From NCBI GenBank assembly GCA_964187785.1, contig OZ076409.1, positions 50,036,001 through 50,100,000 of the forward strand: a stretch of 64,000 nt of DNA. The letters run 5' to 3'. Made by a program: the position numbers and the translations under genes. Source of the stretch: Amphiscolops sp. MND2022. Taxonomy: Eukaryota. The notes under the pieces were generated by a model. The model ran no database searches. It was not told the origin of the DNA and saw nothing but the letters and a program-made list of their open reading frames with translations. Positions 3 through 32,407 of this stretch are shown in pieces. Every line of letters begins with the position of its first letter. Position 1 is the first letter of the stretch.

Positions 3-2225
3 GAATCTATAACACAAGAAACACTTGTTCATCTTTTTCAAAATCCTGATTCTCCTCAAGAACAATCATCACAGCCACCACAATCACAAATCTCTGATAC
101 GCGACACCCAAATCCGTCTGAAACACATACACTTCCCAATACATCAGAATTTTCTGACGAAACAGTACAAAATCCACAAAGTTTTACAATAACTGAAGAC
201 TCCAATCTTATAACAATTCCTACCCATAATATCACCCAAAGGACTACAAATCAGAATCAAGACAACCCTTCAAATATCATTACAGACAATACTTCTGTTT
301 TATCTCCATATAATACTAACATTACACAACCCTCTCAGACACAAATAATACCTCCTCGAAATTATGATCCACCTCCTATTCCATCTCAATTCTCAGCTCA
401 AATAAATACTCATGTCTCTCCTCAACCAAGCTCATCAAATACACACTCTATTACACAGAACAATAATACAGTACATTTCCAAACACCAACTCCACCTTCA
501 TCTTCTGAAATACAAACTTCAACTTATACTCCAGCTCAAACTAACCCAGTACAAACTACACAGCCTACCTTAAATATTAACACAATTCATTCTAACCCGC
601 TCTCTAACTATACTACAGCCAGACATCTGTCTCGACCTCCATTACAACCTATATTAACTGACCCATTATCATACAATCTCACCAGTACCAATCCAAGTCA
701 TACCCAACAATCTCAAATAAATTATAACACACACAACCAATTAAACACTCTTTCTTCCCAGCATACATCTAATACAATCCCTTCTACATTACAAACCTCT
801 CACTTTCAAATATCAAATCCTCCTTCAACAACAATTAGAACTAACCCTCACTTTCATAATACTTCAACTATCCCTTCAACTAATATTTCGAATCATCCTA
901 CATACAATACAACACCTCCATCTACTATGTCTCATAACACTATGTCACATCCAACATATATTAACTCTTCTACTTCTATATCAGAACCCATTAAACCTTT
1001 TGATGGACTCGATCACAACTATACACCTGAAGAATATTTACAACATATTGAGGCACGTGTTACATTCTCCTTAGGTTTACAACCTACATCAGAACATGAA
1101 TATAAATTTTGGCACGCTCGCCGCATGGCTTTCATACAATGCTCTTTAACAGGTACAGCACTAAGCTGGTACATCCGTTTAAACGACACTTATAAACATG
1201 ATTGGCACGCTTTCGTACAAGCTTTCAAAAAACAATTTTCCTCACAAAAGAACGCTTATTACGCTCAAGTTGAAGCCCTTAATTTAACAAAGAAAGATAA
1301 TGAAACAGTACGTCATTTTGCACTCAAAGTTCAACAACTGGTTGAAAAAGGCTGGTGTAATGAGAATGCATCTACTATAAACCTTAAATGCAATGAAATC
1401 TTTACAAAAGGACTTCCAAAAACCCTTAAAGACTTTGCAAATAAAAGACAAGTAAAACACACCTCCACTGTCTTAGAACCTTCAATTCCTTTCCATACTT
1501 TGGTAAAACTTGTTGACGCTGAGGATATTGCAAACGACAAAATTAGAACACATGATCTTGCACTTGAAATCAATAATATTACAAAACAATTGAACACTCA
1601 AACCCTAGATCACCCATCTCAAGAACAACTTATGTATACACAACCCAAAGACCCAAATAACAAAAATAAACCTGCATATAAAAAATACTGCTCATACTGT
1701 CATAGAACAAATCACTCCATTTCTGCTTGTTTCAAAAAACAACGAGATGACGAAGATAAACGAGAAGCATATGCTCGATCAAAATCTCCACAAAAATCAT
1801 TCGTTCAGTACTTTCGTTCTCCTTCAAATGACAAAACAAAACACTATGATAATCGATATCGAAGTCGAAGTACTTCACGAGATAACTCTTATAACCAAAA
1901 ATATTCACAAGATCGATACCGTTCTACATCTCGAGATAGAGACCGATTCCGTTATGATAAAAGTACTACTCCTCCACATTACTCCAGATCAAGATATGAT
2001 ACATATAAACGTGATTCTCGATCTTACCGTTCTCCTTACAGATCTTCTTATAGATCTCCATATAGACAAAATTCGCGTCCTAGATACAGATCACGCTCCT
2101 ATTCAAGAGATGACAAATTTAACAAATACACAAATTCATATAGACCAGACCACCTTCTAGACCAAGAAACTCCCGATTTTCCAGATCCCGATCACATTCA
2201 AATTCCAGAAATAAAATCAATATAG
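3..2225 (+). CDS. gag: Gag of element 1 (5'-incomplete; frame open from position 3)
   Basis: No stop from 3 to the ATG at 927 (S/T/P/N/Q-rich). Capsid-like segment IKPFDG...LTGTALSWY, zinc knuckle CSYCHRTNHSISAC (CX2CX4HX4C), R/S/Y-rich C-terminus. Confidence 0.9.
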   Translation, partial: ESITQETLVHLFQNPDSPQEQSSQPPQSQISDTRHPNPSETHTLPNTSEFSDETVQNPQSFTITEDSNLITIPTHNITQRTTNQNQDNPSNIITDNTSVLSPYNTNITQPSQTQIIPPRNYDPPPIPSQFSAQINTHVSPQPSSSNTHSITQNNNTVHFQTPTPPSSSEIQTSTYTPAQTNPVQTTQPTLNINTIHSNPLSNYTTARHLSRPPLQPILTDPLSYNLTSTNPSHTQQSQINYNTHNQLNTLSSQHTSNTIPSTLQTSHFQISNPPSTTIRTNPHFHNTSTIPSTNISNHPTYNTTPPSTMSHNTMSHPTYINSSTSISEPIKPFDGLDHNYTPEEYLQHIEARVTFSLGLQPTSEHEYKFWHARRMAFIQCSLTGTALSWYIRLNDTYKHDWHAFVQAFKKQFSSQKNAYYAQVEALNLTKKDNETVRHFALKVQQLVEKGWCNENASTINLKCNEIFTKGLPKTLKDFANKRQVKHTSTVLEPSIPFHTLVKLVDAEDIANDKIRTHDLALEINNITKQLNTQTLDHPSQEQLMYTQPKDPNNKNKPAYKKYCSYCHRTNHSISACFKKQRDDEDKREAYARSKSPQKSFVQYFRSPSNDKTKHYDNRYRSRSTSRDNSYNQKYSQDRYRSTSRDRDRFRYDKSTTPPHYSRSRYDTYKRDSRSYRSPYRSSYRSPYRQNSRPRYRSRSYSRDDKFNKYTNSYRPDHLLDQETPDFPDPDHIQIPEIKSI

Positions 2226-2269
2226 TACAACAACAAGAACAAACTGATCCTATCAAATTTGAAGTATAC

Positions 2270-5200
2270 ATGTATCACCCAACAGCAATGGCAAATGCTG
2301 TCACGCCTACAAGTTGGTTTTATACTCTATATGTACACACTCCATCAAGTATAGTACAAAGAGACAACCCATCTAGATTAGAAATTGCATTCCTCCTAGA
2401 TAGCGGTGCTTCCATTTCTGTACTCAATTATCCAACATACATCACTCTTACAAAACTTCTCGATATCAGACCAAATCACACCTCTGATGTTGGACCAACT
2501 AGAAATTCCAAAACACTAACTGTTGCAAACCAAACTGAAGTTCCTATTTTACATTATGCAAATATCATTCTGAACACTACTATTGACGAAAACTCTCGAT
2601 ACTTTTCAGTACCCTTCGCAGTAGCTGATATTAAATACAATATCCTTGGTACACCATTCTTCGAAGACAATATACAAAACATAAACATACAAGACTTTAC
2701 ACTCGAATTTAAATACCAATCAAAAACACACCCAAATTATGCAAAATTTACAACACTTCTATCAAAAGATTATCCATACTTCTTTTACATTTATAGAATT
2801 AACTCAAAAACTCAAATACGTTTAAAACCCAAATCTTCCAAAATTGCACACTTTCCGATCAAAAATTATCATAATCTTCATTTTACAACTACACCACAAA
2901 ACCACTTCTTTCCTTCAGTACCTCATACCTATTTTGCTACCAAATTCCGTACGACTTTCAATTTTATTGAAGTTTTTACAGATGACAAGCCAGATATATG
3001 TGCAACTATTATTCAAAACACTTCAAAACATATTGCAACGCTACCTACAGGACATATTGGCTACATTGAAGTTCCAATTACTAATGAAAAACCTAAATTC
3101 TTCCAAGTTAACGACATTAATACCTTAATACATAATGTTACTCATACTTATCATCCTGATATTACCGAACCACTTCCGCAGACCAATTATATTGTACAAT
3201 ATGATGATCCTACAACCCCTCCCCCACAATTCTCTCTACATCAAATTTATATGACAAATGACCACATTCCAAACCAAACTTCTCCTCTATATAACGTTCA
3301 ACCTACTTCTCATACCTCAGAAAAACGCATTTTTCCTTCTCTTCCATATACTTCTGAAAATCTGAAATTTATTAACAAATTTAATTTCCAATTTTCTGAT
3401 CTTACAGACTCAGAATACATTACTCTTTGCAATATGCTACTCAAATATAAAACATGTTATGCAACCCATAAAAACGATGTTGGAAAAATTTCAACACCCT
3501 TTCGTATACGACTTAAACCAAATGCTCAACTTATGACACAACGTCCTTCCAAAGTTCCTATTCATTATCGAGACAAATTAAATGCACTTCTCAAAGAACT
3601 TGAAAAATATAACATTATTAAACAAATTGGCTCTTCTCCTCAAGACAAACCCGTTTATGGCACAACTTATTTAAATCCTCTTATTATAATCCCCAAGGGA
3701 GATACAATAAAATGTGTATTAGACGCCCGACATCTTAATTCCAATACAGAACAATCTGATGAATCTTGGCCTATTGAACCTCTTGCTCCACAACTAGCAC
3801 GCGCAAACAAAAAGTACAAATCTGCTATTGACCTTATGTATGCCTATGCACATACACCTCTTGACGAAGATACTATAAAACTTACTAGCTTCTCTTCAGG
3901 AGACAAACTTTTCGCTTTCATACGAGGCTTTTATGGTCTCAAAGGACTACCAAATTTCTTTACAAAACAAATGTCTACATTCTTTAAAACTCTTATAGAA
4001 CAAGGTTTCGCGCTTGTCTACATTGACGATATATTACTTTTATCCGACTCTAAAGAACACATGTTTCAACTCATAGAACAATTACACATTATCAGTACAA
4101 AAAATAATCTTAAACTAGCCCCTGAAAAATCCTTTTTCATGCTCCTCAAAGTCAAATTCCTTGGACATGAAATTGGTTACAATACAATTAAACCAATTCA
4201 TTCAAAAATTGCAGCTATTCATAAGATCCCTTCTCCAACTGGCAAAGTTGCCTTAATGAGTTTCATTGGCGCACTCAATTTTTACACCAAATTTATTGAA
4301 AAACTACATATTAACCTCAAACCGTTTTACGATCTTTTACATGAAAACACTCCTTGGAAATGTACAGACGAACACGAAAGTCTATTCCAAAAACTTAAAA
4401 TGTCTCTCACTTCTGAAACAGAATTAACAATACCGAACACAAAACATCCATTTTTCATTACAGTTGACGCTTCCCTTATTGGATTAGGCGCTGTCTTATT
4501 CCAGTTAAATGAACAAAACAAAATGAAAGTCATATCGTACAACTCTCGTATACTTAACCCACAAGAACAAAAACTCTCCACACTTGATAGAGAACTCCTT
4601 GGTATAGTACACGCACTTCAAATCTATGAATTTCTTATCATAGGTTCTCCACATCCAATACACATTTTCACTGATCACAAACCTTTATTACATTGTTTTA
4701 CAAAGAAAGGTAATCTCAGCCCTCGTTTCTATAGAGCTCAAATGCAATTGACAAAATTTTCAAAACTCAAAATAATTCACACCCCTGGAAAAAATCTCTC
4801 TGTTGCCGATATGTTGAGTCGCTCATTCACAAAAGCTGAATTACAACTTAATCAATTAAAACATAAACACCTCCCACCACAAATCGATTTTGCACTTTTA
4901 CAAGATAACACCCTCAAACCTGTACATTACTTAATAAAACATGAAGAAATTTTACCTCATCAAAAACATGACTCTCATCCAATCCTTGCTGATTATGGTA
5001 CAGATCAATTCTCTATACGTATCAATGATAAAGGAAATGACATTATTGTAAAACCCTTACAATCTTTCTCCTTCAAATCTGTAACTCCTTTTCAAACCAA
5101 ATTTAAGACACCTACAAAAAAGAATAACAAAACCCTTCATCAACAATCTCTCTTACTCAATGATACTGACGTTACAAGTGATGACGAAGATCATATTTAC

Positions 5201-7279
5201 ACCAGAATTCCAAAATCTGACTCTTCCTTCTCACAAGATACTACACTACAAACAGAAAATTATTCTACTCTTAAACAACCAAGTCACAACACTTCACAGA
5301 AATCAATTTCTGCAATAAATGTACAACCAAATTTACCATCTCTCACACACTGTCAACAAATTATACCTTTTTATGATACATCATTTTTTAAGTACAAAAA
5401 TTATTTTCAAGGTTTCTTCCTTCCAGATGATTACTCATTGGACATAAAAACTCTCCAACAACAGCAATCCCAAGATCCGGTTCTTAGAACTGTTTATTCT
5501 TGGTTACTAAACAATGAAAAACCCGAATTTATAACACCTCTTATCACTGGTACTCCATTTCTACATGTATATTACAAAAGATTTTCACAACTTTTCATCG
5601 ATGAATCCACTAATCTCATTAGTCTGTATATTACAAACCCTACTGTTAATAACCAATCCTCTACTCCAAATTTTGTACAAGATACTATTCGCATATGCCT
5701 ACCTTTCCGACTGTTTAACACTGTCTTTAACAAACTTCATGAACATTCTCACACTGGTATGAAAATCACCTACAATACATTCAAACAATACTACTATATT
5801 CCATTCCTTGAGAAATGGCTTTCCATTTTCATACATGACTGTATTGAATGTCAACGTAATAAGCACTTCAATATGAAAATTCAAACTGCTCCTACACAAT
5901 CATTTTCAGAACATGCTCCATCTTTCAACTATAGAATCTCAATGGACACTAAAGGACCTATTAACCCTCCTTCTCATAACAAATCCTATATACATGTAAT
6001 AATTGACGCTTTTAGTCACTTTGTTGTTACAGTACCCATCAAATCAAACAACGCAAAGACTGCTATCAAAACTCTCTTACACCACTGGATTATTAAATTT
6101 GGACCACCCATATACCTTGTCACTGATCGTGGATCAGAATATGTTAACAAAGAAATGGCACACCTTTGTACACTTATGGGAATTCGTCATTCTCCTAGAA
6201 CAGCTTATTCTCCTTGGACAAATGGCCTTGTTGAAGTACAAAACAGAAATCTTGGTACTCATCTTCGAATGTTCCTACATGACACACCTAAAGATTGGGC
6301 ATTTCAAGTCCATATGTACGCTTATGCACATAATTCACAACCACTTTCAGAACTCAATGTTTCACCTCACGAAATTGTTTTCCATACTAGTCCCAGAATA
6401 CCCCTCGCATTTGATTTAAACCTTAATCGAGATACCACCAAGACATGTATTTCACGCTATTGCTCTCAACTCCCTGAACACTCTCACTATGATAAATCAG
6501 ATTTAAACCCATTTTTCTATAAGACACTTTCAAAACCCATTCCCCAATGGTTTCTCGCTGTAGAAACTGCTATGTTACAAATTTATTCCACAGTCTATGA
6601 AAACACCCTACGAAAAATTAATTCACACGCATACATTACAAAAACTTACCACGAAGGTAAACCCCTTCCTATTGGTACCTTTGTTTTAAAACGCAATTTT
6701 ACACATGTTCACTTTTCAGACAAACTCAAACCCCTTCGGATTGGACCATATAAAATTCTTGACAGACTATCAGACGTCACATATGCACTACTTGCACAAG
6801 ATGGCTCTACAGTACACGTTCATAGAAATCATTTAATCCCATATTACCCTAAAGAACCACTCTTATATCCACATTTGCGTAATTTTATGCGCTTTTCAGA
6901 CACAACTCAAAACCAAATTCCACAAATTACCAGATATGCAAACAGTGATTCTTCCCCGTTTAATTCTGATGAATCTTTGTCTGAGGAAGATTCTCAAACA
7001 TTTATGACACCACCATCATTTAGTACATCCAATCAAAATACACCATCTATAACATCCAATGACAAGTCTTTAACTTCCTCAACCAATGACAACTCCTTAT
7101 ATAGACATATAATTAATACCCCTCAAACTAATGTCCCTAGTGACAGATCGAGACACCCTTCTAACAACCAAACAACTTCACTTCCTCCTCTAATTGACAG
7201 AACCACAAAAACCACTTATAAACTACGACAACAACCCAAATTAGATTATAGACTTTTTATTACACCTTCAAAACTGTAA
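2270..7279 (+). CDS. pol: Pol polyprotein of element 1 (protease, RT, RNase H, integrase)
   Basis: LLDSGAS (aspartic protease), VYIDDILL (RT), TVDASLIGLGAVL/FTDHKPL (RNase H), HEHSH..CIEC, SMDTKGP, VTDRGSEY, NGLVE (integrase HHCC and DDE), IGPY (GPY/F). Uninterrupted 1669 aa; frame also open upstream to about 2147. Confidence 0.97.
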   Translation: MYHPTAMANAVTPTSWFYTLYVHTPSSIVQRDNPSRLEIAFLLDSGASISVLNYPTYITLTKLLDIRPNHTSDVGPTRNSKTLTVANQTEVPILHYANIILNTTIDENSRYFSVPFAVADIKYNILGTPFFEDNIQNINIQDFTLEFKYQSKTHPNYAKFTTLLSKDYPYFFYIYRINSKTQIRLKPKSSKIAHFPIKNYHNLHFTTTPQNHFFPSVPHTYFATKFRTTFNFIEVFTDDKPDICATIIQNTSKHIATLPTGHIGYIEVPITNEKPKFFQVNDINTLIHNVTHTYHPDITEPLPQTNYIVQYDDPTTPPPQFSLHQIYMTNDHIPNQTSPLYNVQPTSHTSEKRIFPSLPYTSENLKFINKFNFQFSDLTDSEYITLCNMLLKYKTCYATHKNDVGKISTPFRIRLKPNAQLMTQRPSKVPIHYRDKLNALLKELEKYNIIKQIGSSPQDKPVYGTTYLNPLIIIPKGDTIKCVLDARHLNSNTEQSDESWPIEPLAPQLARANKKYKSAIDLMYAYAHTPLDEDTIKLTSFSSGDKLFAFIRGFYGLKGLPNFFTKQMSTFFKTLIEQGFALVYIDDILLLSDSKEHMFQLIEQLHIISTKNNLKLAPEKSFFMLLKVKFLGHEIGYNTIKPIHSKIAAIHKIPSPTGKVALMSFIGALNFYTKFIEKLHINLKPFYDLLHENTPWKCTDEHESLFQKLKMSLTSETELTIPNTKHPFFITVDASLIGLGAVLFQLNEQNKMKVISYNSRILNPQEQKLSTLDRELLGIVHALQIYEFLIIGSPHPIHIFTDHKPLLHCFTKKGNLSPRFYRAQMQLTKFSKLKIIHTPGKNLSVADMLSRSFTKAELQLNQLKHKHLPPQIDFALLQDNTLKPVHYLIKHEEILPHQKHDSHPILADYGTDQFSIRINDKGNDIIVKPLQSFSFKSVTPFQTKFKTPTKKNNKTLHQQSLLLNDTDVTSDDEDHIYTRIPKSDSSFSQDTTLQTENYSTLKQPSHNTSQKSISAINVQPNLPSLTHCQQIIPFYDTSFFKYKNYFQGFFLPDDYSLDIKTLQQQQSQDPVLRTVYSWLLNNEKPEFITPLITGTPFLHVYYKRFSQLFIDESTNLISLYITNPTVNNQSSTPNFVQDTIRICLPFRLFNTVFNKLHEHSHTGMKITYNTFKQYYYIPFLEKWLSIFIHDCIECQRNKHFNMKIQTAPTQSFSEHAPSFNYRISMDTKGPINPPSHNKSYIHVIIDAFSHFVVTVPIKSNNAKTAIKTLLHHWIIKFGPPIYLVTDRGSEYVNKEMAHLCTLMGIRHSPRTAYSPWTNGLVEVQNRNLGTHLRMFLHDTPKDWAFQVHMYAYAHNSQPLSELNVSPHEIVFHTSPRIPLAFDLNLNRDTTKTCISRYCSQLPEHSHYDKSDLNPFFYKTLSKPIPQWFLAVETAMLQIYSTVYENTLRKINSHAYITKTYHEGKPLPIGTFVLKRNFTHVHFSDKLKPLRIGPYKILDRLSDVTYALLAQDGSTVHVHRNHLIPYYPKEPLLYPHLRNFMRFSDTTQNQIPQITRYANSDSSPFNSDESLSEEDSQTFMTPPSFSTSNQNTPSITSNDKSLTSSTNDNSLYRHIINTPQTNVPSDRSRHPSNNQTTSLPPLIDRTTKTTYKLRQQPKLDYRLFITPSKL

Positions 7280-7380
7280 TCTAGTCATTCTATCTGTTGG
7301 CTTACTCAAACCTAGTCACTCCGGTTGAATAAAGGTTGAATAAATGAAATAAAACTCATAACAAGTTATCTTACAGATAA

Positions 7381-8637
7381 CCTGTTGAAAACGCTTCAAC
7401 AATCCTGGATCCTCCCTCTGATATCTCTCCATCAGCTCCAAGTATTCCTTCTACACCTGAATCTTCAGTATCAAACACTACAAACTCTAGTAATGTAACT
7501 CCTACTACTCCTTCTAAAAGACCCAGATCATACATCTCTGAAACCACTTCTTCTTCACTTCTTCACAGACCACCTATAACCGAAATTCCTATAAACACTC
7601 GTCCCCAACAAACTCCTATTAACACTCCTATTATACATATACCCAACCCTGAAAGTGTTGAACAATACGTAACATACAAACACCCTACAGCTATCAAAAC
7701 TGTTAGACTCCAACCTCAACTTAATCTAGTACAAATTCCTGATACTGAATATACGAAACTACCTCCACTAAAATTACCTTCAGAACTTAGCACTACAGAA
7801 CTTAGCACTACTTCTTCAAAACTTTATCCACCATTAAAACCTCTTCGAAAACCCTCTACATCACTCTCAATTCTATTAGACAATAATACTTCTGACTACA
7901 CTCCATCACAAGACACAAGCTCATTTTTTGTACCTAAACATAGATATAATCTTCGTGACCTTCCTTCACGTAGACTTAGTACAGACACTTCCACACTCAA
8001 TTTTTCCGCTCTTTCTAGCAATTCTGCATTACGACTTGTAAGACAACACGCTCAACCATTGTCCTCTGACCCATCATCTTCAGAACTCTTTCAATCTCCT
8101 TATTTTACTTCTGGTTTTGAAACCGCTTCATTACTCTCATCAAACCCACAAACTGCATTTCTATCAGGAGATCTCTTTTCACAAGTAGTAATCCCTACTC
8201 CTGTTCCTGCACATATTAGACTACCTGAATACTATACTGCAGAACATTCTAGACCTCCAACCCCAAATTTTGCTGATTATCCACTTCGAGTCGATGGTAT
8301 AACTATCTACGACCCACAAAACGATCCTCGATTTCCAATTCTTGCAGAACGTTTTATTAATAACAACGATCTCTTATCTCACAAACGTAAAGAAACAGAA
8401 CTAAAACGTCTTCAGACACCAAATTTAGAACTTAAATTTGAAGTCAAAGTCAAATTTCAAGGATTAAATCCTCATCCAATATTTCACGTTTCTAAAATAG
8501 AACATAAAACCTCTCCTGCTCCTTTTGAAGTAGTACATATTGAATTCGAACGCGATCTTACTATACCCACTATCACGTATGGCAACATTGTCTTCTGTAA
8601 CCCATACTCTGGTCTCAAATATAAAACATCCTTTTAA
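7381..8637 (+). CDS. Element 1 accessory ORF A: ~418-codon ATG-less frame, Ser/Thr/Pro-rich N-half
   Basis: Frame of the listed 8059-8637 ORF stays open back to the TAA at 7378-7380 and contains no in-frame ATG; overlaps the env start. Confidence 0.6.
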   Translation, partial: PVENASTILDPPSDISPSAPSIPSTPESSVSNTTNSSNVTPTTPSKRPRSYISETTSSSLLHRPPITEIPINTRPQQTPINTPIIHIPNPESVEQYVTYKHPTAIKTVRLQPQLNLVQIPDTEYTKLPPLKLPSELSTTELSTTSSKLYPPLKPLRKPSTSLSILLDNNTSDYTPSQDTSSFFVPKHRYNLRDLPSRRLSTDTSTLNFSALSSNSALRLVRQHAQPLSSDPSSSELFQSPYFTSGFETASLLSSNPQTAFLSGDLFSQVVIPTPVPAHIRLPEYYTAEHSRPPTPNFADYPLRVDGITIYDPQNDPRFPILAERFINNNDLLSHKRKETELKRLQTPNLELKFEVKVKFQGLNPHPIFHVSKIEHKTSPAPFEVVHIEFERDLTIPTITYGNIVFCNPYSGLKYKTSF

Positions 8638-11287
8638 ATCTTACACAACCTCTTATATAACAACTATAATTCTTTTCTTACATTTCTTTAACTCTACCTT
8701 TTCCATACCTATAGCACTCCCTGACACAGAAAACTATCTTCCATCAGATGACCCGAATATTACAAATCTCATGGTTTCTCATTATGATTGTGCAAAACAA
8801 CACAATCTCAGACAATTTAATCTACTTAATGTAAAACAATGCACTGAAGCTCCTTCTGACATTAAACATGCAAGTGTTAAAGCCCGTGTATATGTCCGAG
8901 CAAAAGCTAAACGTATCAAAGCTTTCAAATGTGTTGCTTATGCAAAGAAAGAAAGGAAAATATGCTTTCAAGGATCTGTCAAATACCGTCGTGTTGATCG
9001 AACTGTATGGAATCATAATACATTACCGCTTCCTGTTACTCTTGACCCGGTAGAATGTAAAAACATAATAAGACATTTAAATGGTACAAATGATAAAATA
9101 TTGAACAACCTTAACTACAACAAAACATTTACTTTCTTAGAAGACCATTATTTTCAAGAACGTTTAGAACAATATCAAAATCCTTTCACTGTATATCAAT
9201 TGAACAAAATGTATACAGGTACATTTACATTTATGCCTGCTGATAAAAACTGGATATATGACCCTACAAAAAACCCTTATCATAACTGTCCTGCTCATCA
9301 TCAATTCGAAGTCAACTTAGTTAGTTGGCGACTAGAAGTTTCCGAAATAGAACTTACATATGATGACACATCAAATGATATGATAATAGATGGACATACA
9401 TTACCCTGCTATTTTGCAGATGGCTTCTGTAAACCCACTACAAAAACTCCTTTTACTCTTGTTTGGTTTAATGATGATTATTGTCTAATTTTTACCTTAC
9501 AAGACTTTATTGGACGTATGACTAAAATTGAAGATAGATATTGGATTGAAACAGACTCTTTTGTACATTCTCCACATTCAGTAAAATCTCAAACTGCTTC
9601 TGGCATAAAAGGTACAGAACATCCTTATGTTCATGCTCCCCATACACAACATCCAAATAACCCAAGTCTTTCAAGATTTGAAGTTTTTCCTACAGCACAA
9701 ACCTTTTGTGGTAAACCAGACCCTCTCTATTCTACACAATACTCAGACCTTTTTGTTACATACACTGATGGTTTTAATATGCATACAGGACAACCTAATC
9801 CTCATTCCATAATTGATGAGTATATCTCTGGTAAAATAGTATTGGACACTTCAAAAAACAAATTTGTGTTTCCTGCATTAAATGTATCAAACAATTTCGC
9901 TACCATTGATTATGATGCCCATATAAACACCAAAATTGATTACACTATTAATCATGTTTTTCAATCAATGACAGTACAAGAACTAAATACTCTTCATACA
10001 ATATGTGAACTAGAACGAAATCAACTTCTTACAATACTCGCTATGTCAGTACAAAATCCTCAACTTGCTGGTTTCCTTTTAACCGGTAATAGAAGTAACT
10101 TCTTATACGTTGAAGGCTCAACCGCCTGGCTTTATGACTGTCCTCATTTTTTATCTCCTTTATACAAAGCAGATAGATGCTTTGACCGTATACCCATACA
10201 TTTTAAAGATACCTTAATGTACGTTGATCCTATTACAAGACAAACTTATGATTATGCTACACCAATTACATGCGATAATAATCCACGTAACATTATTGAA
10301 CTCGACCCTGATTCAGATGATCAAGACTTTTACATTCTTGGACCTGAACCTATCAAACGTAAACCTCCACTAATGTTTACACCCTCACAAATCAAAACTA
10401 CAATACGCCCTAATACTTTTACAGCCCAAGATGCTGGTATATATTCAAATGCAGAACTTGATCAATTTTGGAACCGTATTTTATTTTCTAAACACTCTGA
10501 TTCTACACTTCAATTGCTAGGTAAAGCTCTTAGTTATTCATTCATTTCATCTAATACTCCAAATTACGATGCAGATTCCCCTCAAGACTCTGGTAATCCT
10601 TACAATACATTACGAATAGGACTACATGATAAACTCTTGAATTTAACTCCTCTTTTCACACCTACATGGTTCTCTGATGCTTTTATTGCACTTTTTGGAT
10701 ACCCTTGTTACATTCTTACACAATGTGGCATATACTTTTCTACATTTCTTTTTGTACAAGCTACTCTTACACTTATTGTTAAACTTTACAAAACAATATC
10801 TATTAAATATAATCTTAAAAATAATATTACTTTACTTAGTTCTATTGCACATGGTTTTTTTAATGTTCTTACAGCACGAATGGTCAGTGACCTACATGAG
10901 ACTCAAAACAAAAAACCCAAAAGTACACTTTTCAAATCCAAATCTTTAGATAACTTTATTGACACTTCTCCAAATTTAATTAACCATTCTACAGATGTTA
11001 CTTCCCCTCCACCTTTTTATACCAAACGATCTAACAAAATTCAATTTCCTAAATTTAACTTCTTTCCGAAACGACACCACAATTCTCACCATAAAACGAC
11101 TCCACTTCCTTTCTCTTCTATCCAACATCCCCCACTTCCTAATTATACTCATAAAAACTTTCACTCGAATGACAATCTAACTCCTCAACATGACACTTTA
11201 ATTAACAATCCTGTCACTTCTACTACGGATACACCAATTAAAATCTATTCACGAATAAACTATCCTTTTCCTCCTCCATCTTCTTGA
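8579..11287 (+). CDS. env: Envelope glycoprotein, chuvirus-type/class III (gB-like) fusogen
   Basis: ATG 8579, hydrophobic signal (ITTIILFLHFFNSTFS), YDC..C start, Cys-rich ectodomain with N-glycosylation sequons, segment INTKIDY..ICELERNQL..NPQLAG..EGSTAWLYDC..CFDRIPI..YVDPITR..C resembling chuviral glycoproteins, C-terminal hydrophobic span (AFIALFGYPCYILTQCGIYFSTFLFVQATLTLIV), cytoplasmic tail with PPFY. Confidence 0.85.
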   Translation: MATLSSVTHTLVSNIKHPFKSYTTSYITTIILFLHFFNSTFSIPIALPDTENYLPSDDPNITNLMVSHYDCAKQHNLRQFNLLNVKQCTEAPSDIKHASVKARVYVRAKAKRIKAFKCVAYAKKERKICFQGSVKYRRVDRTVWNHNTLPLPVTLDPVECKNIIRHLNGTNDKILNNLNYNKTFTFLEDHYFQERLEQYQNPFTVYQLNKMYTGTFTFMPADKNWIYDPTKNPYHNCPAHHQFEVNLVSWRLEVSEIELTYDDTSNDMIIDGHTLPCYFADGFCKPTTKTPFTLVWFNDDYCLIFTLQDFIGRMTKIEDRYWIETDSFVHSPHSVKSQTASGIKGTEHPYVHAPHTQHPNNPSLSRFEVFPTAQTFCGKPDPLYSTQYSDLFVTYTDGFNMHTGQPNPHSIIDEYISGKIVLDTSKNKFVFPALNVSNNFATIDYDAHINTKIDYTINHVFQSMTVQELNTLHTICELERNQLLTILAMSVQNPQLAGFLLTGNRSNFLYVEGSTAWLYDCPHFLSPLYKADRCFDRIPIHFKDTLMYVDPITRQTYDYATPITCDNNPRNIIELDPDSDDQDFYILGPEPIKRKPPLMFTPSQIKTTIRPNTFTAQDAGIYSNAELDQFWNRILFSKHSDSTLQLLGKALSYSFISSNTPNYDADSPQDSGNPYNTLRIGLHDKLLNLTPLFTPTWFSDAFIALFGYPCYILTQCGIYFSTFLFVQATLTLIVKLYKTISIKYNLKNNITLLSSIAHGFFNVLTARMVSDLHETQNKKPKSTLFKSKSLDNFIDTSPNLINHSTDVTSPPPFYTKRSNKIQFPKFNFFPKRHHNSHHKTTPLPFSSIQHPPLPNYTHKNFHSNDNLTPQHDTLINNPVTSTTDTPIKIYSRINYPFPPPSS

Positions 11288-11551
11288 ACTCTCTCTCAGT
11301 TCTTCTGTAACTCTCTTCCAGAACACTCGCCTGATATTTCTTCACAATTGCTACTCCTCCAACACTTGAAACTCTTGCAGAAATTCATCTTCCTCAGTCC
11401 AATAATACTTCTCTCATAATAACCATCTTCAAAAACTCTTCAACTAAAGTTGACAAATCCACTCGTTAGTGTAATTTATAGTACTTTAACTTTAAAGTGC
11501 TAAGGCCTCTTGGAATAGATAACACTGTGACTGTTGATGCTTTCTCAAACA

Positions 11552-12880
11552 ATGACACAAGCACAAATTGATCTACAAACACAGCTTGAACAAGCAACCC
11601 CAACAGATCTTATAACAAGACCTCTTTCAAATGATTCTCCTGTTCTCTATATTGACACTTCTGACAAAACACCTCCAACTTTTCTTGAACCAATGGAGCA
11701 CACAAAAGTTGAAAATGAAAATCCAAAACCTACTCCTCCACAAGATGATACTGATCATACACAATCGACACCACCTCCTCCAAAAAAGCGATATGAAATA
11801 ATGAAAGATCCAATCTTTCTTTCATCACCAATATATCCTCCTTCAATACCTTCAAAAATTTCACTTTGCACGAATTGCGATGATCATTTGATCTCAATTC
11901 TTTCCACTGACAATTTCGTCTTTAAAGCACAACTAACTTCTCTATATATGCATCCTACGGACTACTCATTTCGCTTATATGACAAAAATCAAGACTTCTT
12001 CACATCCATTGCTTCCAAAATAATGGGTCCATACCAATATTGGCTCGAGAATGGAGTTAAAATTTTCTCTCTCCAATTCAATTTTCTTAGACCTTCTATA
12101 TTCGATCTCAAAACGGATGAATCGGATCCATCCTTTCTCTCTATAGCACAAAAAGCTTCTCATCATCAGACATATACTAAATTTCTACAATACACGAAAC
12201 CACAAAATTATATTTTTGTCAAATACAAATATACATCACCGTTCACAATGACAAATATGTACACTCTCAATCACTCCTGTATAACAGGCTACCTTCGGAA
12301 CTATGACCCTATAAAGCAATACTTCTGTTTGCTTCCATATAACAATACTTCACGTCCACTTATTGTACCTCAAGAATATCTTATACATTACGATGATTTT
12401 TTGTTGCCTTGCAACATCCCTACTCAAATTGCAAAACCTCTTACTGTCATTAAACACCTCGTTTCTTCTCCACTTGACGATAAAGATAGAACATACTATA
12501 CAGCACTCTACAAACAAACGTATTCCTACAATGAACTTCTCTTTATATCTGCCAAAACTATCTCTTTCATGGTACAAGCTGAACAAAAAACTGAACATAA
12601 ATCACACACTTCGCCCATCAAAAACACTCATGACAAACTTTCCTCTGTATTAACCAATCGAACACTTCGAGACATAACAAATTTACTGGAACCCTATAAA
12701 CGAAACTCCTCTGAAACTCCTATCACAACACTCACACATATACTACACTGTTGTGACAGAACACTGAAACTCCTTCAGACACTCGATTTAGACTCTCAAC
12801 GCATCACTCAATCATCCCAAGCAATCCAAACTGCTTTGGAAACTATAACTACTCTTTTTAATTCAACTAATCTTCATTAA
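11552..12880 (+). CDS. Element 1 accessory ORF B, unknown function (~442 aa)
   Basis: Long uninterrupted ORF after env; Pro-rich N-terminus with PPKKR basic motif; same compositional bias as the element. Confidence 0.7.
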   Translation: MTQAQIDLQTQLEQATPTDLITRPLSNDSPVLYIDTSDKTPPTFLEPMEHTKVENENPKPTPPQDDTDHTQSTPPPPKKRYEIMKDPIFLSSPIYPPSIPSKISLCTNCDDHLISILSTDNFVFKAQLTSLYMHPTDYSFRLYDKNQDFFTSIASKIMGPYQYWLENGVKIFSLQFNFLRPSIFDLKTDESDPSFLSIAQKASHHQTYTKFLQYTKPQNYIFVKYKYTSPFTMTNMYTLNHSCITGYLRNYDPIKQYFCLLPYNNTSRPLIVPQEYLIHYDDFLLPCNIPTQIAKPLTVIKHLVSSPLDDKDRTYYTALYKQTYSYNELLFISAKTISFMVQAEQKTEHKSHTSPIKNTHDKLSSVLTNRTLRDITNLLEPYKRNSSETPITTLTHILHCCDRTLKLLQTLDLDSQRITQSSQAIQTALETITTLFNSTNLH

Positions 12881-13289: not shown

Positions 13290-13742
13290 ATGGCTCCAAA
13301 TGCTGAAAGAAACGACATTCTAACAATGACTTCAGAATTTTCGAAAGTACATAGTCTTAAAGCCGCCATATTTCATACCATGGCCTTCAAACTCTCGCTT
13401 GAGATTCACAAAAACAAAATTACGCCAAAATGTCTCATCGCTTTCTCAAAAGTACTCTACAATGTCACGCAAATAAAGAAAAAGAAAATCACTTTCGAGC
13501 AATACTCGCGAATCCATCTTCAAGGACCTAAAATTGCCATTTGTGAAACGGCATCTAATGTTGTTTTCGTCCTCAATTCGTCCTTTACTTCAAAGGATCA
13601 GTACTTTCGTGCTGCTATCCAAGAAGCTACAGATGCTTTTAATAATATGTTGCAAGATTTCGGGTATACTCAACAACTAGAACTTTATGACCCGATCCAA
13701 CACCAACCTCATCCTCCATCGCAAAACTCTCTCTTTCAATAA
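13290..13742 (+). CDS. Element 1 accessory ORF C, unknown function (150 aa)
   Basis: ATG in good context (ATAATGG), preceded by a pyrimidine tract and candidate acceptor TTCTTTCAG ending 13243; contains IKKKK. Confidence 0.55.
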   Translation: MAPNAERNDILTMTSEFSKVHSLKAAIFHTMAFKLSLEIHKNKITPKCLIAFSKVLYNVTQIKKKKITFEQYSRIHLQGPKIAICETASNVVFVLNSSFTSKDQYFRAAIQEATDAFNNMLQDFGYTQQLELYDPIQHQPHPPSQNSLFQ

Positions 13743-13979: not shown

Positions 13980-14105
13980 TGCTGACTTCTTGACTGGTCT
14001 TCATCCTCCAATGCTGACTTCTTGACTGGTCTTCACACCTCAATTGCTGACTTTGTGAACTGGTCTTCTTCACACCTCAACTGCTGACTTCGTGAACTGG
14101 TCTTC
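13980..14105 (+). repeat. Four tandem ~32-36 bp units (TGCTGACTT..ACTGGTCTTC) in element 1 3' region
   Basis: Imperfect direct repeats read from the sequence. Confidence 0.8.
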
Positions 14106-15209
14106 ATACTTCAATGGCCAATACAAATTTCAAACTGAACTGTATAATCACTTATAATCAATATAACCTGTAACCCATTTTAATCAAATCATAATATAGA
14201 CTAGTGCTATATACTCGTATCTAAATTTTAGTGCTATATAATCTTATCTAATCGTAGTATACTAGTGCTATATACTCCTATCTAATCTTTCACGCTATAT
14301 AATCTTATTTAATCTTAATCTTATCTAACCATTGTATAACTAACCCCCATTAACCATAATCCTTCCCAAATTCTAACCATAATTATTCTTGTAACCACAA
14401 TATTATCTACTTCCATTGTATTGTGTATAGAACTTTAACATTATCTTACATAATTATCCACTTCAAAATACATTTTAATCCCCGTCTTTTTACAGAACAC
14501 AAGACCTACTTACAGCACAAGAAATTTTCTAAGATTTTTGGACAAAAATTTTTCTTTTACAAAACATGTCCTACAACTTTCCTTTAACCCTCAAAAGCAT
14601 TCCCAAAAAATTTTCTAAAATTTTCTTTCGAACTCTTAAAAATTGTCACTTGTAAAATATGTCACTTCTAGTTTTCAAATGTTTGAAACTTGAAATAGCC
14701 AAAGTTTTTTTTCAACTCTTGCTTCTGCTCTACTCTTCACTTTTGTTGAAAATGAACTCTCACTCCAACCTTGACTTTTCAAAACTTCTTCACTTTTGGT
14801 TCACATACCCGCCAATGTTGGTTCACAATTCATTGACAACTTCACGCTTTAATTCCTCAACTTGAAAAGTTTTCAATGCTGACTAACTCATGTTGATGAA
14901 ACAAACTTTTTCAACAAGCCGATGGCTGATACGTACGAAAAAGAAACATGAAAGAATAAATAGTTGTCAACAATAACTTCAAAGAACTTGTCAGTCAAAG
15001 AAACTGAAAGAACTTGAACCTGTTTGAACCTTTTTGCACCAATTGAATCGTCTATGACGTAAGAAGTCAAATCGTCTTAGGTTGTTCTCACTCCTTAAGT
15101 ATGGTACTCTACAAAACAAAACTCATGCAACTGTAATACAACATATATGAAACAAACCCATGCACATAACAAAAACTTCTAGAACTCCTCAAACTCAAAA
15201 GTGCATATA

Positions 15210-15653
15210 TGTAAATTTTATTTTTAAATTCCCGGTTGATTGTGATGCCATGATGCATGTCCTCAAAGATTTTATAAATCTGAAATACTCTGAACTCTTA
15301 ACAAAAGAATTTAGTAAATCTAATTGAATCTAGAAACCAATTATTCTAGAAGAAACTTCTTTTAATATATCCTGTACCAAGCTTCCCCAATTCATCCTGT
15401 TGATGTCACATTGTAATTGATGAAACCTACCCTAGTTAATAGAATATATCTACTTGGAGAAATTGAGAATTCTTCCTAGCAATCAGTCTTCTTCCAGCAC
15501 TTCAAGAACTGAGATCTCAGAAATAGATTGTACTCTGAACTAGCTAGCTACCAAGTATCAGATAAAAGATAAGACGACTCTGCTGTTAAAATCTTAGACT
15601 TCTTATGTCAGTTCTAACTCGTATAAAAGAAACAACTACAAAAACTTTTAACA
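15210..15653 (+). repeat. Putative 3' LTR of element 1
   Basis: Begins TGTAAA, ends TAACA, composition shifts near 15210 and host intron sequence follows; no second copy in window to confirm. Confidence 0.35.
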
Positions 15654-15687
15654 GCTCAACAGTAGAATGGTAAAACCAATCGCCTAC

Positions 15688-15900
15688 CTGCGGATGTTCC
15701 GTATACTTCTATTTCACAAAACGCCATTATGTGATTCCACGAGAACAAAGAGATGCTATTGGCTACTCTCATGGTTCCAGTGCATTGAACTGAAGTCCAC
15801 TCTCCTGCTTTCGACTCTCCCACGTAGCCACAAGAAGAGCAGCCGTAGCCTTCCGAACACAGAATAATTGAAACATTTTGCATCAACCCAGCGAACATCT
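15688..15900 (-). CDS. Host gene exon: C-terminal half of F-type lectin/discoidin-like domain
   Basis: Acceptor CTCTTTTCAG, donor GTAGGC, phase 1-1; encodes EMFAGLMQNVSI..WTSVQC..MAFCEIEVYG, matching the LCEVEVYG-type end of FTP/F5/8C domains. Confidence 0.8.
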
Positions 15901-16338
15901 CTGAAAAGAGTTGAAGAACCCGTATTCTATTGAAGAACTCACGTTCACTGCAAAGCCAAATAAAACGTGAAAAATATCAACTCTTCGAGTTTTTCTTTGA
16001 AGTTGAAACAGTTATGTTCGCTTCATTTTCTGTAATACTTAATAGTTAATACTTCCAAATTTTTGAAAATATATTTATGTCCTAAATTGCGTGCCAAACT
16101 CTCTGAAGGTTGTTGAGTCTGCGATCGGCTCGAAAGTTCGAAAAACATTCGCTCAATTATTATATCTGAATAAAGATATGCTGCACAAATTCTCATATTA
16201 CTTAAATGTTCAAAAATTTGACAGACAACCGATGCATTGAACTTGGAAACAATACAGAAGTCAGTTTTATCAAGTTTTTGGAAAAAAACTTCGATAGTTG
16301 TTCAAGAAATATGACATTGAATCTTCCGAAGCATTCAC

Positions 16339-16593
16339 CTGATCCTTGGACATTCAGAATAAATACTTTGTTTACAATTGAGAAAGGAATTCTGTATGAG
16401 GCAATGACATATCCCATTTCGGCGTTTCTCGACATAAAACACTGATTCATCGAACGTGCAAGAACTCCATCGATCGTATTCTCTACTTTTGTCTCTGGAA
16501 AATTGGAGGCTGTTCCAAAGTTGTATGTCAACGCTTCCAAAATCTGAATCTTGGAGAATGCGCTGTTGATGGTCGTGGTTGTTGCGGTACCTG
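16339..16593 (-). CDS. Host gene exon: Thr-rich linker plus N-terminal half of F-type lectin-like domain
   Basis: Acceptor TTTTTGCAG(CAG), donor GTGAAT, phase 1-1; AGTATTTTINS..ENTIDG..QCFMS..VNKVFILN; splices in frame to both neighbours. Confidence 0.8.
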
Positions 16594-16939
16594 CTGCAAA
16601 AATTATCAGAATGTTTCTGAATTTTTTGAAAAAATGAGAGCTTTATGCTTGTTTTCTTTAGTTTTCATTTCAACGTTGTTAACTATAGATAAAATTGCTA
16701 AAATATAGTAGTTTTTCAATTTGTTTTGTTATAATTTTGATCTATCGGGCATTCTTTGTCCGATAGGGCATCCTTTGTCCGAAGTCATTATATGCTTTTT
16801 TTGCGGAGAATCAGTTAGTCTAATCTAAGCTTTCGCGTACACGATTCCGGAAAGAGTTCATTTTTTTGAAGTTCTTGTATGTTTATTTTTCATTCTTGTG
16901 GTGGTTCGTATACATGTGATTGAAAAATTGTAAACTTAC

Positions 16940-17152: not shown

Positions 17153-18180
17153 TGTCATGCCTGATGCATGAAAATACAAACAGCGATGTAGATAACTATC
17201 CTACATACAAAGGTGAAGGAGTAAACCGACGAACTGAGAACGAACACTGAAGAAGAAAAGAAATGTAGTGAACCAAACCACATCACAAAACTTGAACGCG
17301 AATTTACCAAATGCATCATCGTTATAAAATCTGCAAACAACTTTGCTATATTCACCCATATTTCGTACATGTACTGCATATACCTTGTAAACCAAACTCG
17401 CAACATTTTAGTTGGCTACGAAAGTAATGTAGGTGATGTACCATCATCAGATTTTTCGTTTCAATATTATTAGTCACGTGATTAACAGATGCAATATCCA
17501 TTCACTCATATGATGCTAGTAGTGTAACCACATTATAATACCAAGTATTGAGTCATGTAACTATAGCAACGCAATTCAACGCAATTGCATTTTTGTTTCA
17601 ATGCTACGCAAAAATTGCGCAATTACCAACCAAGGTGTGAACGAACACTAAGATATGATTGGTTGATGTGGTCACGTGACCAACGTCGCCATAATTGACA
17701 CCAGCCAATATAGTACCACCAGTAGATTTTGTGTAGTTATTACGTACAGTTGCTTACCACATTAGTTCTCGATATTGCAAAATTCAACATTTCCAACCTA
17801 CTACTATCAACATTCAATAAACTCTTAAAACTCCATTTATTCTTCACAATGGTCAATACTCGTTCCCAAGTAAGAAGTTCTATCCCAGTGTTTATGAGCG
17901 GGATGGATAAGCATGACAGAAGTAGCAGATACAGAAAGTGAATGTAGTGTACCTGAAGTCCTTTCTAGAGACCAAATTGATGAGTTAGACAATGGAAACC
18001 TTATCCGTACTGATAACAACTCAGAGCAAAGATCGATTGATCAGCGCTTTTCAGACGTGAATAAACAAATTAGCGATCTTACTGGATTAGTTCTAGCATT
18101 AACCGAAAAGTTATCCTCCAATGTTGAAGAAGGGAACAATCAGAGTACAGCGTCAGACAAGACCTGTGCACGTTCCGACA
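17153..18180 (+). repeat. 5' LTR of element 2
   Basis: TGTCATG..CCGACA, 1028 bp; about 20 substitutions and 1 indel versus 31176-32202 by manual count; AATAAA at 17816. Confidence 0.97.
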
Positions 18181-19374
18181 TGGTGACAGGAGTCTCTCCA
18201 ACCAACTACCTGACGAACCCACACCCGACACTTCAGTCTACATCCAGATACCCTCAGCCACCCGCCGACCAGTTCGACGACATAGTCAACGAAATCCACC
18301 ACCTGAGAGACACAATGACGGATACAGTGCAACATCCCAAAATCTTGCACACACAAGTCCCGCTTTTCAGAGGAAACCGGGAAAAATACATTGAATTTGA
18401 ACACTTGCTGCTCAACCAGCTCAGACCACATCAACACAAACTGTCCGAAGAGCAAAACTCACGTACTTCCAGAGCTTGCTGCGAGACGACGCCATCGAGT
18501 TCTGGCAATCGCTGAAAATGACAAGCCAAACCACACTCGCCCAAGTCCTTCGCTACTTCAAGAAAGAGTACGCGAAAGAAGATGTGAAGGAAGTAGCGAA
18601 ATACAAATTTGACCAAATGCGCTACGACCCAACAGCTGAGACGTTCAATGACTTCCTAAACAAATTCAAGAAAGTGGCGAAACAAGCATTTGGGGACAAA
18701 TCTAGTGATATAACGGTAACATTCCTGTTCGCCAAACTCCCCGTCCAAATGCAAAACGAATTGGCTATGGCTGGGAAACACGATGCATCCATGGAGGAAA
18801 TCCGGACATTTGTCCAACGCAGATGTCAATACACCCAGCTCATACCAAATACGACAGCGCAACCATTCAACCAAATCAGCGCTCCACAACCCAACGTAGC
18901 AGCACCGCAGTCATCCAACTCCCAACCAACCCAAAACAGGGAGACAAAGCGCAAATTTGACGAGCAATGTCGCCACTGCGGAATCACCGGACACAAATGG
19001 GCCGAATGCCGAAAGCGCCTCAGAGAGGAAGCGCACAACAAAACAACTACTCACAACCAACAACAGCCAACCCAACCCACCAATACCCAGGACGTCAAAC
19101 CCAAATACAATCCCAAATTGGTGTGCCAGATATGTGGCAAGTGGGACACTCCGCCCGAGACTGCTATTACAGAAAAACGACGACGTCAGCCTACCGAAGC
19201 GTCCCGTATTCTAAGCAGTCGACAGAGGAGAACAAGCAATTCCGCCGAGATTTTAGGCAGACCAACAACAGGATCTACAACACGAACGAATTGTCCCACG
19301 CCACCAACGACGAAACCGACAATGCTGAGGAAATGGAGAGACACGATGACGTAGAAGATCCAAAAATCTTCTAA
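17849..19374 (+). pseudogene. gag: Gag of element 2, frameshifted
   Basis: MVNTRSQ start within LTR, VPLFRG/LRDDAIEFW capsid-like region, knuckles CRHCGITGHKWAEC and CQICGK/VGHSARDC split over several frames. Confidence 0.85.
18181..18193 (+). promoter_or_regulatory. Primer-binding site of element 2 (TGGTGACAGGAGT)
   Basis: Directly follows the LTR; TGG start; identical 13-mer in element 3; one mismatch from the complement of a typical tRNA-Leu 3' end (inference). Confidence 0.8.
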
Positions 19375-30253: not shown

Positions 30254-31175
30254 TTTTAACAAACAATCAATAACAATCAAACAATAACTAATGTCAAAGC
30301 ATACAAACAATCTCTGGAACAAATTTGCGATCTACCAGGTTTCAGCAGCTATCGTTATACAGAATGAGGATTGATCACCCTTATCATCTGGGAATGATAG
30401 CCTACTACCCACGTCAAAGAGGAATTTGAGAAAATATTACTCGAAGCACACCCATTTCGACAACTCTACCAATCAAAGAACCACAAAGTTCGAATTTCAC
30501 AGATCGCTATATTTCTCCCGAGAAAGGAAAATTCAATGCACAAAATTTCCTAATGTACTTCCCCGCCTGAACGATTCGAAAATGACCATTTTGATTAGCT
30601 CACTTCCACCTGGTATACCGCTCAATAGCTTACAGCAATTCCAACTGACAACAACTCAATCGTGACGAAAGGTTTAATTCATTCACTCGGGTTTGGCATC
30701 GACGAAGATTTGTTTACAAAGCGCACAATATTTCCACTACCACTTACTTCCGAACAGTTACCGAATAAGCCGAGTAATTATGTCACGATGCCACGTAAGA
30801 TTGATTTCCGGCTACCTCACTCTACTCGAACTCGCTTACTGCAATCAACGCGCACAATTGGATGACGTGGCTACCCTCGCCACATCGACTCTATATTTAC
30901 TCTTTACTGAGGTGGAACTTTCAACACGCGACTAACATTTCCTTCCTCTTGCTTACCATATCGAGATGAAATAACAATCAATCCGACTATTGCCAGCTAG
31001 GAAGCCAACTTGTCACTGCCAACGTGGTTGCTATGGCAACATCACTGCTATCTTCAATCAACAAATATTACGAGTTCAAGTTTGCAAATTGGAAAGCAGC
31101 GTACAAACTATCTCACGATTAGAAGAGACTATGCACCATCCCCGATACATGTTCTTTTTCAAAAAAGACCCGGAG

Positions 31176-32202: not shown

Positions 32203-32407
32203 GGTGCTACTTCAGAAAATCGTGAACTAACCGAGACAAATTTTTAAAATAAAAGTGTTTTGTAAAATTGAAACCATCAACGGACGAGAGATAAAAAGAT
32301 TTTAGCCTGAGACAAGTTACCATGTTCATGCTTACCAGAGATGTACGTTTAAGAATTCAAAATTTGCTATATGTGTTTTGTGATTGACCTATCTGCTTTT
32401 TTAGATA

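Follow-up and report, generated by a model that had tools for sequence, protein, structure and literature searches.

The element and its genes

In this study, we analysed a 64,000-nucleotide stretch of DNA from Amphiscolops sp. MND2022 (assembly GCA_964187785.1, contig OZ076409.1, positions 50,036,001 to 50,100,000 of the forward strand). This whole stretch is called the window, and positions are given in its numbering. The mitochondrial code of the host is that of an invertebrate: its COX1 has TGA, AAA and ATA where Trp, Lys and Met are conserved, and AGR codons occur in frame. It carries an envelope gene (env) at 8579-11287, which belongs to a Ty3/gypsy element of about 18.1 kb in total that begins upstream of the window. 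Three further open reading frames (ORFs), here named X, Y and Z, accompany env, and the resulting layout, gag-pol / X / env / Y / Z, is new here. Letters A to H denote families of this genome with an env of the glycoprotein B (gB) type; the window copy belongs to family A. The features of the element are listed below (aa, amino acids; LTR, long terminal repeat; PBS, primer-binding site).

Upstream of the window (L011:7552-7969): 5' LTR, 418 bp, 100% identical to the 3' LTR
Upstream of the window, following the 5' LTR: PBS, TGGTGCGACC
3-2225, + strand: C-terminal part of gag with Retrotrans_gag (PF03732, E=8.9e-9) and a Cys/His knuckle; the gag start lies upstream of the window
2144-7279, + strand: pol frame with protease, reverse transcriptase (RT) and RNase H as well as integrase (H2C2, rve, C-terminal SH3/p58)
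7402-7410, + strand: predicted CUG start of ORF X, ATC-CTG-GAT, with A at -3 and G at +4
7405-8637, + strand: ORF X, about 410 aa, no in-frame AUG, overlapping the start of env by 59 nt
7945-7956, + strand: YNLR motif in ORF X, resembling the nucleosome-binding site GGYNLRPR of foamy virus Gag
8579-11287, + strand: env, 902 aa, AUG start, no stops, predicted class III fusogen of the gB/Monjiviricetes type
Env aa ~27-47: predicted signal (hydropathy)
8987-9001, + strand: RRVDR in the predicted first fusion-loop hairpin of Env (from the alignment, the loop being placed from model strands)
10004-10243, + strand: env core, aa 476-555 (CELER...DPITR), predicted long central helix followed by a beta region, with nearly invariant columns
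Env aa ~712-740: predicted membrane anchor (hydropathy)
11537-12880, + strand: ORF Y, accessory protein of 447 aa, no known family
13290-13742, + strand: ORF Z, fast-diverging accessory ORF of 150 aa
15241-15658, + strand: 3' LTR, 418 bp, TG...CA, same as the 5' LTR
15659-15662, + strand: target-site duplication ACAG, 4 bp; the same 4 bp precede the 5' LTR

Envelope gene

The env ORF starts 1299 nt past the pol stop at 7279. A first-pass annotation of the window had described an uninterrupted type I protein of about 902 aa downstream of pol; the ORF is indeed AUG-started and free of stops, but the conserved AUG-free ORF X intervenes between the two. Near the N-terminus of Env, 19-residue hydropathy windows from aa 27-30 reach scores of 1.4-1.6, and windows that begin at aa 701-724 mark a second hydrophobic stretch, past which about 160 aa remain as a tail. 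This hydropathy profile points to a type I membrane topology. The ectodomain contains 14 Cys and several N-glycan sequons. In an alignment of 73 sequences, 14/14 of these Cys are conserved, each in no fewer than 94% of the rows without a gap, and the membrane-proximal and transmembrane block is conserved. Near-invariant columns of the conservation alignment, which begins at aa 58, include (in Env numbering) C476, E477, R480, A497, G498, C521, C534, P539, P551 and R554. The core pattern CELER..P..A..G....C..C...P......P.TR that had been highlighted in the annotation is made of residues among these columns, although as written it abbreviates aa 476-555 and is not to scale.

Env matches the Pfam family of Monjiviricetes fusion glycoproteins (PF24664, E=1.5e-24, 86.4 bits with a cut-off of 27). 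An AlphaFold2 model of aa 58-704, built from a 73-row alignment (predicted local distance difference test, pLDDT, 71; predicted template modelling score 0.49), contains long beta hairpins and a 45-residue central helix (model residues 388-432). When this model was searched with Foldseek against BFVD, the top matches were G proteins of chu-like viruses, xinmoviruses and qin-like viruses (E 3e-26 to 7e-22) with template modelling (TM) scores of 0.39-0.44 and 11-15% identity. Against PDB every match listed was herpes gB, the best with E 1.5e-10. The domain IV match has a root-mean-square deviation (rmsd) of 3.5 A over 156 residues. In VIA-align, three gB chains rank 1-3 (Z 8.0-8.9) and are followed by rabies G (Z 7.2), then by Chandipura G and thogotovirus envelope proteins. 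ESM Atlas returned chuvirus, rhabdovirus and gp64 clusters at 0.86, which serves as a lead only, and a single-sequence fold of the whole env ORF (pLDDT 33) was set aside. A class I env of the F-type errantivirus kind was considered and rejected, since the predicted fold is class III and the protein has no R-x-K/R-R furin-type site. Judged by these models, ORF 8579-11287 is almost certainly a class III (gB/chuvirus-type) envelope gene, and it is likely that its product is a working fusogen. The earlier placement with chuvirus/gB-like class III fusogens therefore finds support in PF24664, the AlphaFold2 model and the Foldseek and VIA-align matches; in the Foldseek check proposed with it, against gB, vesicular stomatitis virus G and chuvirus-type glycoproteins, chu-like G and herpes gB came out best and no class I, class II or cellular protein was a top match.

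Of the predicted fusion loops, loop 1 is charged with some aromatic residues and loop 2 carries W/I/Y, with a pLDDT below 50 at the loop tip. Families A, H, B and C share R-R-x-D-R in the first loop, where families D-G have CG-x-x-x-H-[AS]-S. Potentially, the charged loop 1 is a cleavage site or a different kind of membrane-binding loop.

ORF X and its predicted CUG start

Between pol and env lies a Met-free open frame of 418 codons (7381-8637), within which ORF X has an N-terminal part rich in Ser, Pro and Thr; its C-terminal domain, of about 140 aa, is conserved. Its homologues are 65% (family H), 47% (C) and 40% (B) identical to family A. X is full length in 8 of 10 family A copies, a sample picked for open env that is used throughout, and about 130 of the 150 scored genome matches to its C-terminal part lie in frames of 417-418 aa (hand count). 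No match to X was found in Pfam or PDB, its profile reaching only chance level against PDB (E 0.08 or worse), and blastp found no homologue in families D-G.

Of the 22 copies of X sampled in four families, 21 lack any in-frame AUG; the other, from family A, has a late Met. Where X homology begins, A-n-n-CTG-G is kept, likewise in 21 of 22 copies of the four families; the -1 codon takes three forms, the context being ATC-CTG-GAT in A and B, ATA-CTG-GAT in C and AAT-CTG-GAT in H. CTG accounts for 0.5-3% of the Leu codons of these elements, and in A, B2 and C no other CTG lies in frame within X. Between B1 and B2, the 11 codons past the CUG differ only synonymously (6 changes), and 4 of the 8 codons before it differ non-synonymously; by this comparison, coding constraint begins at the CUG codon. 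Family H was retrieved after the CUG prediction had been made and fits it in 3/3 copies.

The stretch from the CUG to the env AUG is also poor in AUGs of any frame, with 0-3 observed and 6.6-11.8 expected (Poisson P 0.001-0.01). A stricter test, shuffling codon order, gave P values of 0.002-0.047 for this deficit over X, and env and pol do not have it. The AUGs remaining over X in A, B1 and C open short upstream ORFs (uORFs) of 1-16 codons. The interval from the upstream in-frame stop to the CTG is free of AG in families A, B and H, and a canonical splice acceptor is therefore ruled out there. The candidate acceptor cttacag at 7370-7376 was rejected, as an in-frame stop follows it and sister copies do not retain it. 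Considering the sequence evidence as a whole, it seems fairly likely that X starts at the CUG and that env is reached by leaky scanning.

The YNLR motif stands inside a poorly conserved region of X, where all four families (A, B, C and H) retain R/H/N-Y-N-L-R. It is tempting to speculate that X binds nucleosomes through this motif; we regard this only as a tentative idea and would sooner bet against it.

The 1200 nt before env contain one AUG in family G, four in D, six in F and nine in E. In family G about 1170 nt before env are AUG-free (L072:780-1945, L074:784-1950), and no long open frame lies there. An env leader devoid of AUGs may thus predate ORF X.

ORFs Y and Z

Homologues of ORF Y are 68% (H), 40% (B) and 40% (C) identical to family A, and Y is full length in 7 of the 10 sampled copies. 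It matches nothing in Pfam, PDB or ESM Atlas, and its profile gave chance-level values against PDB (E 0.08 or worse). The 502 homologues recovered for Y include none that is named or domain-annotated among the 120 listed. ORF Z is open in 10/10 sampled copies; in family H it is 55-65% identical, and comparison with the ORF at the same position in B and C gave no clear homology. Z has no PDB match either, and Pfam reported nothing at its cut-off for X, Y, Z or their homologues.

Gag-pol and classification of the element

Pfam places RVT_1, RT_RNaseH, Integrase_H2C2, rve and SH3_Tf2-1 in this order along the pol frame, giving an overall arrangement of protease, RT, RNase H and integrase. The protease motif LLDSGAS was read by eye, the gypsy-type tail domains of the integrase are Pfam matches below the cut-off, and a single RNase H is followed by a spacer of about 300 aa ahead of the integrase. 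In PDB the RT-RNase H region is closest to Ty3 (E=1e-36), followed by 8r0s, an 'enzymatic polyprotein' (3e-26), foamy virus (6e-17) and HIV-1 (3e-5); no BEL/Pao RT was among the PDB matches listed. By its pol order, RT affinity, TG...CA LTRs, PBS and target-site duplication, the element is classified as Ty3/gypsy (Metaviridae).

In the window copy the gag-pol frame is broken twice, once upstream of the window and again near 2147, and this copy is therefore regarded as non-autonomous. In sister copies gag and pol may form one frame of more than 2600 aa, and gag-pol is open over the fetched stretch in 4 of the 10 sampled copies. The first-pass annotation was right to assign env to a Gypsy element, as the Pfam domains of pol and the nearness of the RT-RNase H to Ty3 confirm; its word 'intact' holds for env and fails for the element.

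Ahead of the 3' LTR, positions 15216-15240 are not purine-rich and end in CCCGGTTGAT, and a CCGG-like core recurs there in families B and C; the plus-strand primer of the element may be atypical. Within gag, an overlapping frame of about 180-200 codons (1609-2160) is open in many family A copies (203-246 codons). Frames of similar size overlap gag in B and C, and composition alone may account for this frame. Short non-coding tandem repeats (13990-14110 and 14197-14317) precede the 3' LTR and vary in number among copies.

Family size, relatives and selection

A 177-aa piece of Env searched against the 1.07-Gb genome gave 7278 candidates. These are candidate matches and do not equal copy numbers. 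The best 150 were scored, and all are 99-100% identical and free of stops; about 97 of these 150 best-scoring candidates lie in frames of at least 913 aa (hand count). Nine sister copies were retrieved with both ends; 9/9 show 0-2 base differences between their LTRs and have a 4-bp target-site duplication. Family A is thus highly and recently amplified.

The genome holds at least eight gB-env families, and env is open in many recent copies of all eight examined. Compared with family A, Env is 78% (H), 60% (C) and 54% (B) identical, and the X-env-Y layout is common to A, H, C and B. Families D, E, F and G are more distant (Env 26-31%, pol 33-40% identical to A); they have the same PBS and other ORFs after env. 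Trees of RT and of Env, each with eight rows taken from families of this genome and with H left out, both separate (A,C,B) from (D-G) and unite F with G, with supports of 84/75 and 93/92 for RT and of 100/100 and 83/91 for Env, respectively. In a 41-row Env tree (FastTree), the Envs of A, H, B and C form a long-branch clade, and the FastTree run warns of long branches.

Within families, the ratio of nonsynonymous to synonymous substitution rates (dN/dS) was obtained for two pairs and amounts to 0.043/0.061 for pol, 0.064/0.095 for X, 0.12/0.072 for env and 0.12/0.064 for Y. ORF Z has a dN/dS of 0.022 in family A, and within Env the ectodomain (0.048) differs from the tail (0.35). By these ratios, purifying selection is shown to act on pol, X, env, Y and Z. 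From the dN/dS values and the groups shared by the RT and Env trees, it follows that selection on env has been as strong as on pol and that the two have travelled together.

Interpretation

With a probability of roughly 60%, we read ORF 8579-11287 as the Env of a recently amplified 18-kb Ty3/gypsy family, likely a fusogen for cell-to-cell movement and likely translated by leaky scanning through a CUG-started ORF X. In this model, a 3' RNA, spliced or internally started, would present X first. Few ribosomes would begin at the CUG, and most would scan about 1.2-1.3 kb of AUG-poor RNA past 0-3 short uORFs to the env AUG. Env would then enter the secretory path and coat Gag-Pol particles, which might enter other cells of the same host, probably of the germline, as Drosophila errantiviruses do. 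X would be tethered to chromatin, binding nucleosomes through YNLR. The window copy, unable to make full Gag-Pol, would rely on sister copies. On the suggestion of the first-pass annotation that the lineage may be infectious, the strong selection on env has to be set against the broken gag-pol of this copy and the charged predicted loop 1.

Several observations weigh against this reading. Globally, the Env model fits gB modestly, with a TM near 0.3 and an rmsd near 20 A, and phmmer and hmmsearch with env and its profile found no relative by sequence in PDB. The predicted loop 1 of A, H, B and C (RRxDR) is charged and not hydrophobic, which speaks against a plain fusogen. As for X, CTT replaces CTG in one C copy that also carries a stop in X, and AG dinucleotides do occur in family C in the interval from the upstream in-frame stop to the CUG. 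The four X families are related and hence not independent. The plus strand contains little G, and AUGs are also scarce in the disordered gag region (4 in 958 nt); the AUG depletion is therefore partly compositional. No significant hairpin was found after the CUG (z -0.9 to +1.1). The YNLR match comprises four residues and is a lead only. A YKLR/YNLR motif is likewise present at the very end of the integrase tail (pol residues 1692-1695, just before 7279), both in families A and B and in the third Gypsy element of the window.

Alternatively, Env might be kept for a role other than entry, such as blocking the entry of related elements or cell adhesion, while the family spreads inside germ cells. 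For most such elements the transmission route is described as unknown (PMC13524379), the charged loop 1 of A, H, B and C would fit such a role, and the env-less Gypsy elements in the window likewise have LTRs that are 98-99% identical. However, an ectodomain dN/dS as low as that of pol, the retention of all 14 Cys and of the full fold, and open env in many recent copies of every family examined speak against it, and we consider a non-entry role unlikely.

Our preferred reading, in which env is reached through a CUG-started X, also has to be weighed against splicing. Spliced env RNAs are usual in retroviruses and in fly gypsy. X might be joined by splicing to an AUG exon further upstream, or arise through frameshifting or read-through out of pol, with env on its own RNA and the CUG kept as an RNA or DNA signal or for another purpose. 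In A and B, ATCCTGGAT is an interrupted palindrome, which would suit such a signal, and in family C in-frame AG sites do occur upstream of the CUG. The palindrome is nevertheless broken in C and H, whose contexts retain A-3, CTG and G+4. The lack of AG between stop and CUG in A, B and H speaks against an acceptor there; pol and X are parted by in-frame stops, with a spacer that varies in length among families, and splicing does not account for the depletion of out-of-frame AUGs. We regard this alternative as quite improbable.

Finally, the proposal of the first-pass annotation that this lineage captured a chuvirus glycoprotein independently, and relatively recently, could draw on the chu-like virus G proteins that outrank herpes gB among the structural matches and on the long-branch clade of the A/H/B/C Envs, but it is very improbable, because the viral matches are only 11-15% identical compared with 26-31% for the Envs of other Gypsy families here that share the PBS, the trees of RT and of Env agree on (A,C,B) versus (D-G) and on F+G, and gB-type env is ancient and widespread in Ty3/gypsy according to PMC13524379.

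Beyond the leaky-scanned Env favoured here, one may ask whether the clade parallels complex retroviruses in an invertebrate, having three or more accessory genes, a CUG-initiated nucleosome-binder and a working fusogen made from one RNA by leaky scanning, and spread to high copy number in the germline by cell-to-cell infection. Such a combination is conceivable, and we think it rather doubtful. If X does start at CUG, gene finders that require an AUG have missed a conserved gene, and AUG-free frames beside env elsewhere would merit a second look.

Other features of the window

Two more Gypsy elements lie in the window. The second (17153-32206, about 15 kb) has LTRs of about 1030 bp that are 97.9% identical and a broken gag-pol; no env was seen in it, and its minus-strand ORFs after pol (25850-27168 and 28297-28989) have no Pfam match. 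The third (47188-63353, about 16 kb) has LTRs of about 2.4 kb (98.8-99% identical), a broken gag-pol, three minus-strand ORFs (55795-58800) and an acidic plus-strand ORF (60347-61105). Between them, the repeats of 40494-43808 are nested; they include long perfect hairpins (41727-41926, 40494-40647), have inverted arms of 170 bp and resemble non-autonomous DNA transposons. Open frames on the minus strand adjoin the insertion site of the env-bearing element (15656-15976 and 16202-16642) and have no Pfam match. One of them ends in a CEIEVYG motif, which we take to be reminiscent of fucolectin/F5-8-type domains; Pfam gave no match for it.

Comparison with known systems

A recent survey (Chary and Hayashi, eLife 2026; PMC13524379) reports 1512 env-carrying Ty3/gypsy elements across metazoans, in which gB-type env is about as common as F-type and copy numbers reach hundreds. 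Some of its gB-type envs were found by using mosquito BEL/Pao chuvirus-like glycoproteins as baits. The survey argues for a Pre-Cambrian origin of env and against baculoviruses as its source; the first-pass annotation had taken a derivation of insect errantivirus env from baculovirus F as established. Its prefilter for non-insect elements admitted pol-env gaps of up to 1000 nt, with manual extension for some groups; the gap here is 1299 nt. The PBS strings GGTCGCACCA and AGTCGCACCA have no match in its master table, and its main text does not mention 'accessory', 'splic' or 'subgenomic'. The HSV (herpes simplex virus)/gB-type errantiviruses described there share with the present element a Ty3/gypsy pol, gag-pol-env within LTRs and many near-identical copies, as well as a gB-type ectodomain with conserved Cys between signal and membrane anchor. 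The present element differs in its 18-kb length, in the selected extra ORFs X, Y and Z, in the AUG-free X with its conserved CUG, in a gag-pol that may be one frame of more than 2600 aa and in the charged loop 1. Expression of env and cell-to-cell movement of gB-type errantiviruses are stated to be open in the same paper. RNA, protein and particles would naturally be sought in a host such as this one, which has no fewer than eight young gB-env families and, in one of them, 150 or more near-identical env copies.

In Anakin of mosquitoes (PMC7642597), too, recently active copies carry a class III glycoprotein of chuvirus-like type between their LTRs. However, Anakin is described as a BEL/Pao element, whereas the element studied here has Retrotrans_gag, gypsy-type pol domains and a Ty3-like RT. 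With the G proteins of Jingchuvirales, xinmoviruses and qinviruses (PF24664) and with herpes gB, Env shares the predicted fold and the core of cysteines and central helix; it differs by an identity of only 9-15%, by being borne on a retrotransposon and by its tail of about 160 aa. Troyka elements were dismissed as a comparison, as they are reported to have no envelope (PMC12440569).

For the predicted translation of X and env, the closest parallel is rice tungro bacilliform virus, whose ORF I starts at AUU and in which leaky scanning across 900 nt without internal AUGs feeds later ORFs (PMC5902531). Common to both are a non-AUG first ORF, a long AUG-poor stretch to the next ORF and tolerance of short uORFs. 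The virus is a plant pararetrovirus for which the mechanism is experimental, whereas here it is predicted, involves CUG and would feed env. We found no prior report of a CUG-started or leaky-scanned ORF ahead of a retrotransposon env in the open literature, as searched by title and abstract. Concerning YNLR, the chromatin-binding motif GGYNLRPR of prototype foamy virus Gag includes Y537 and R540 (PMC12125541); the Y-N-L-R core and a disordered basic context are shared, and the predicted site here lies in the separate accessory ORF X. In summary, Env represents a further lineage of a published class, for which a recent independent capture is unlikely, and what appears novel is the accessory-gene layout with its predicted CUG start and leaky scanning to env.

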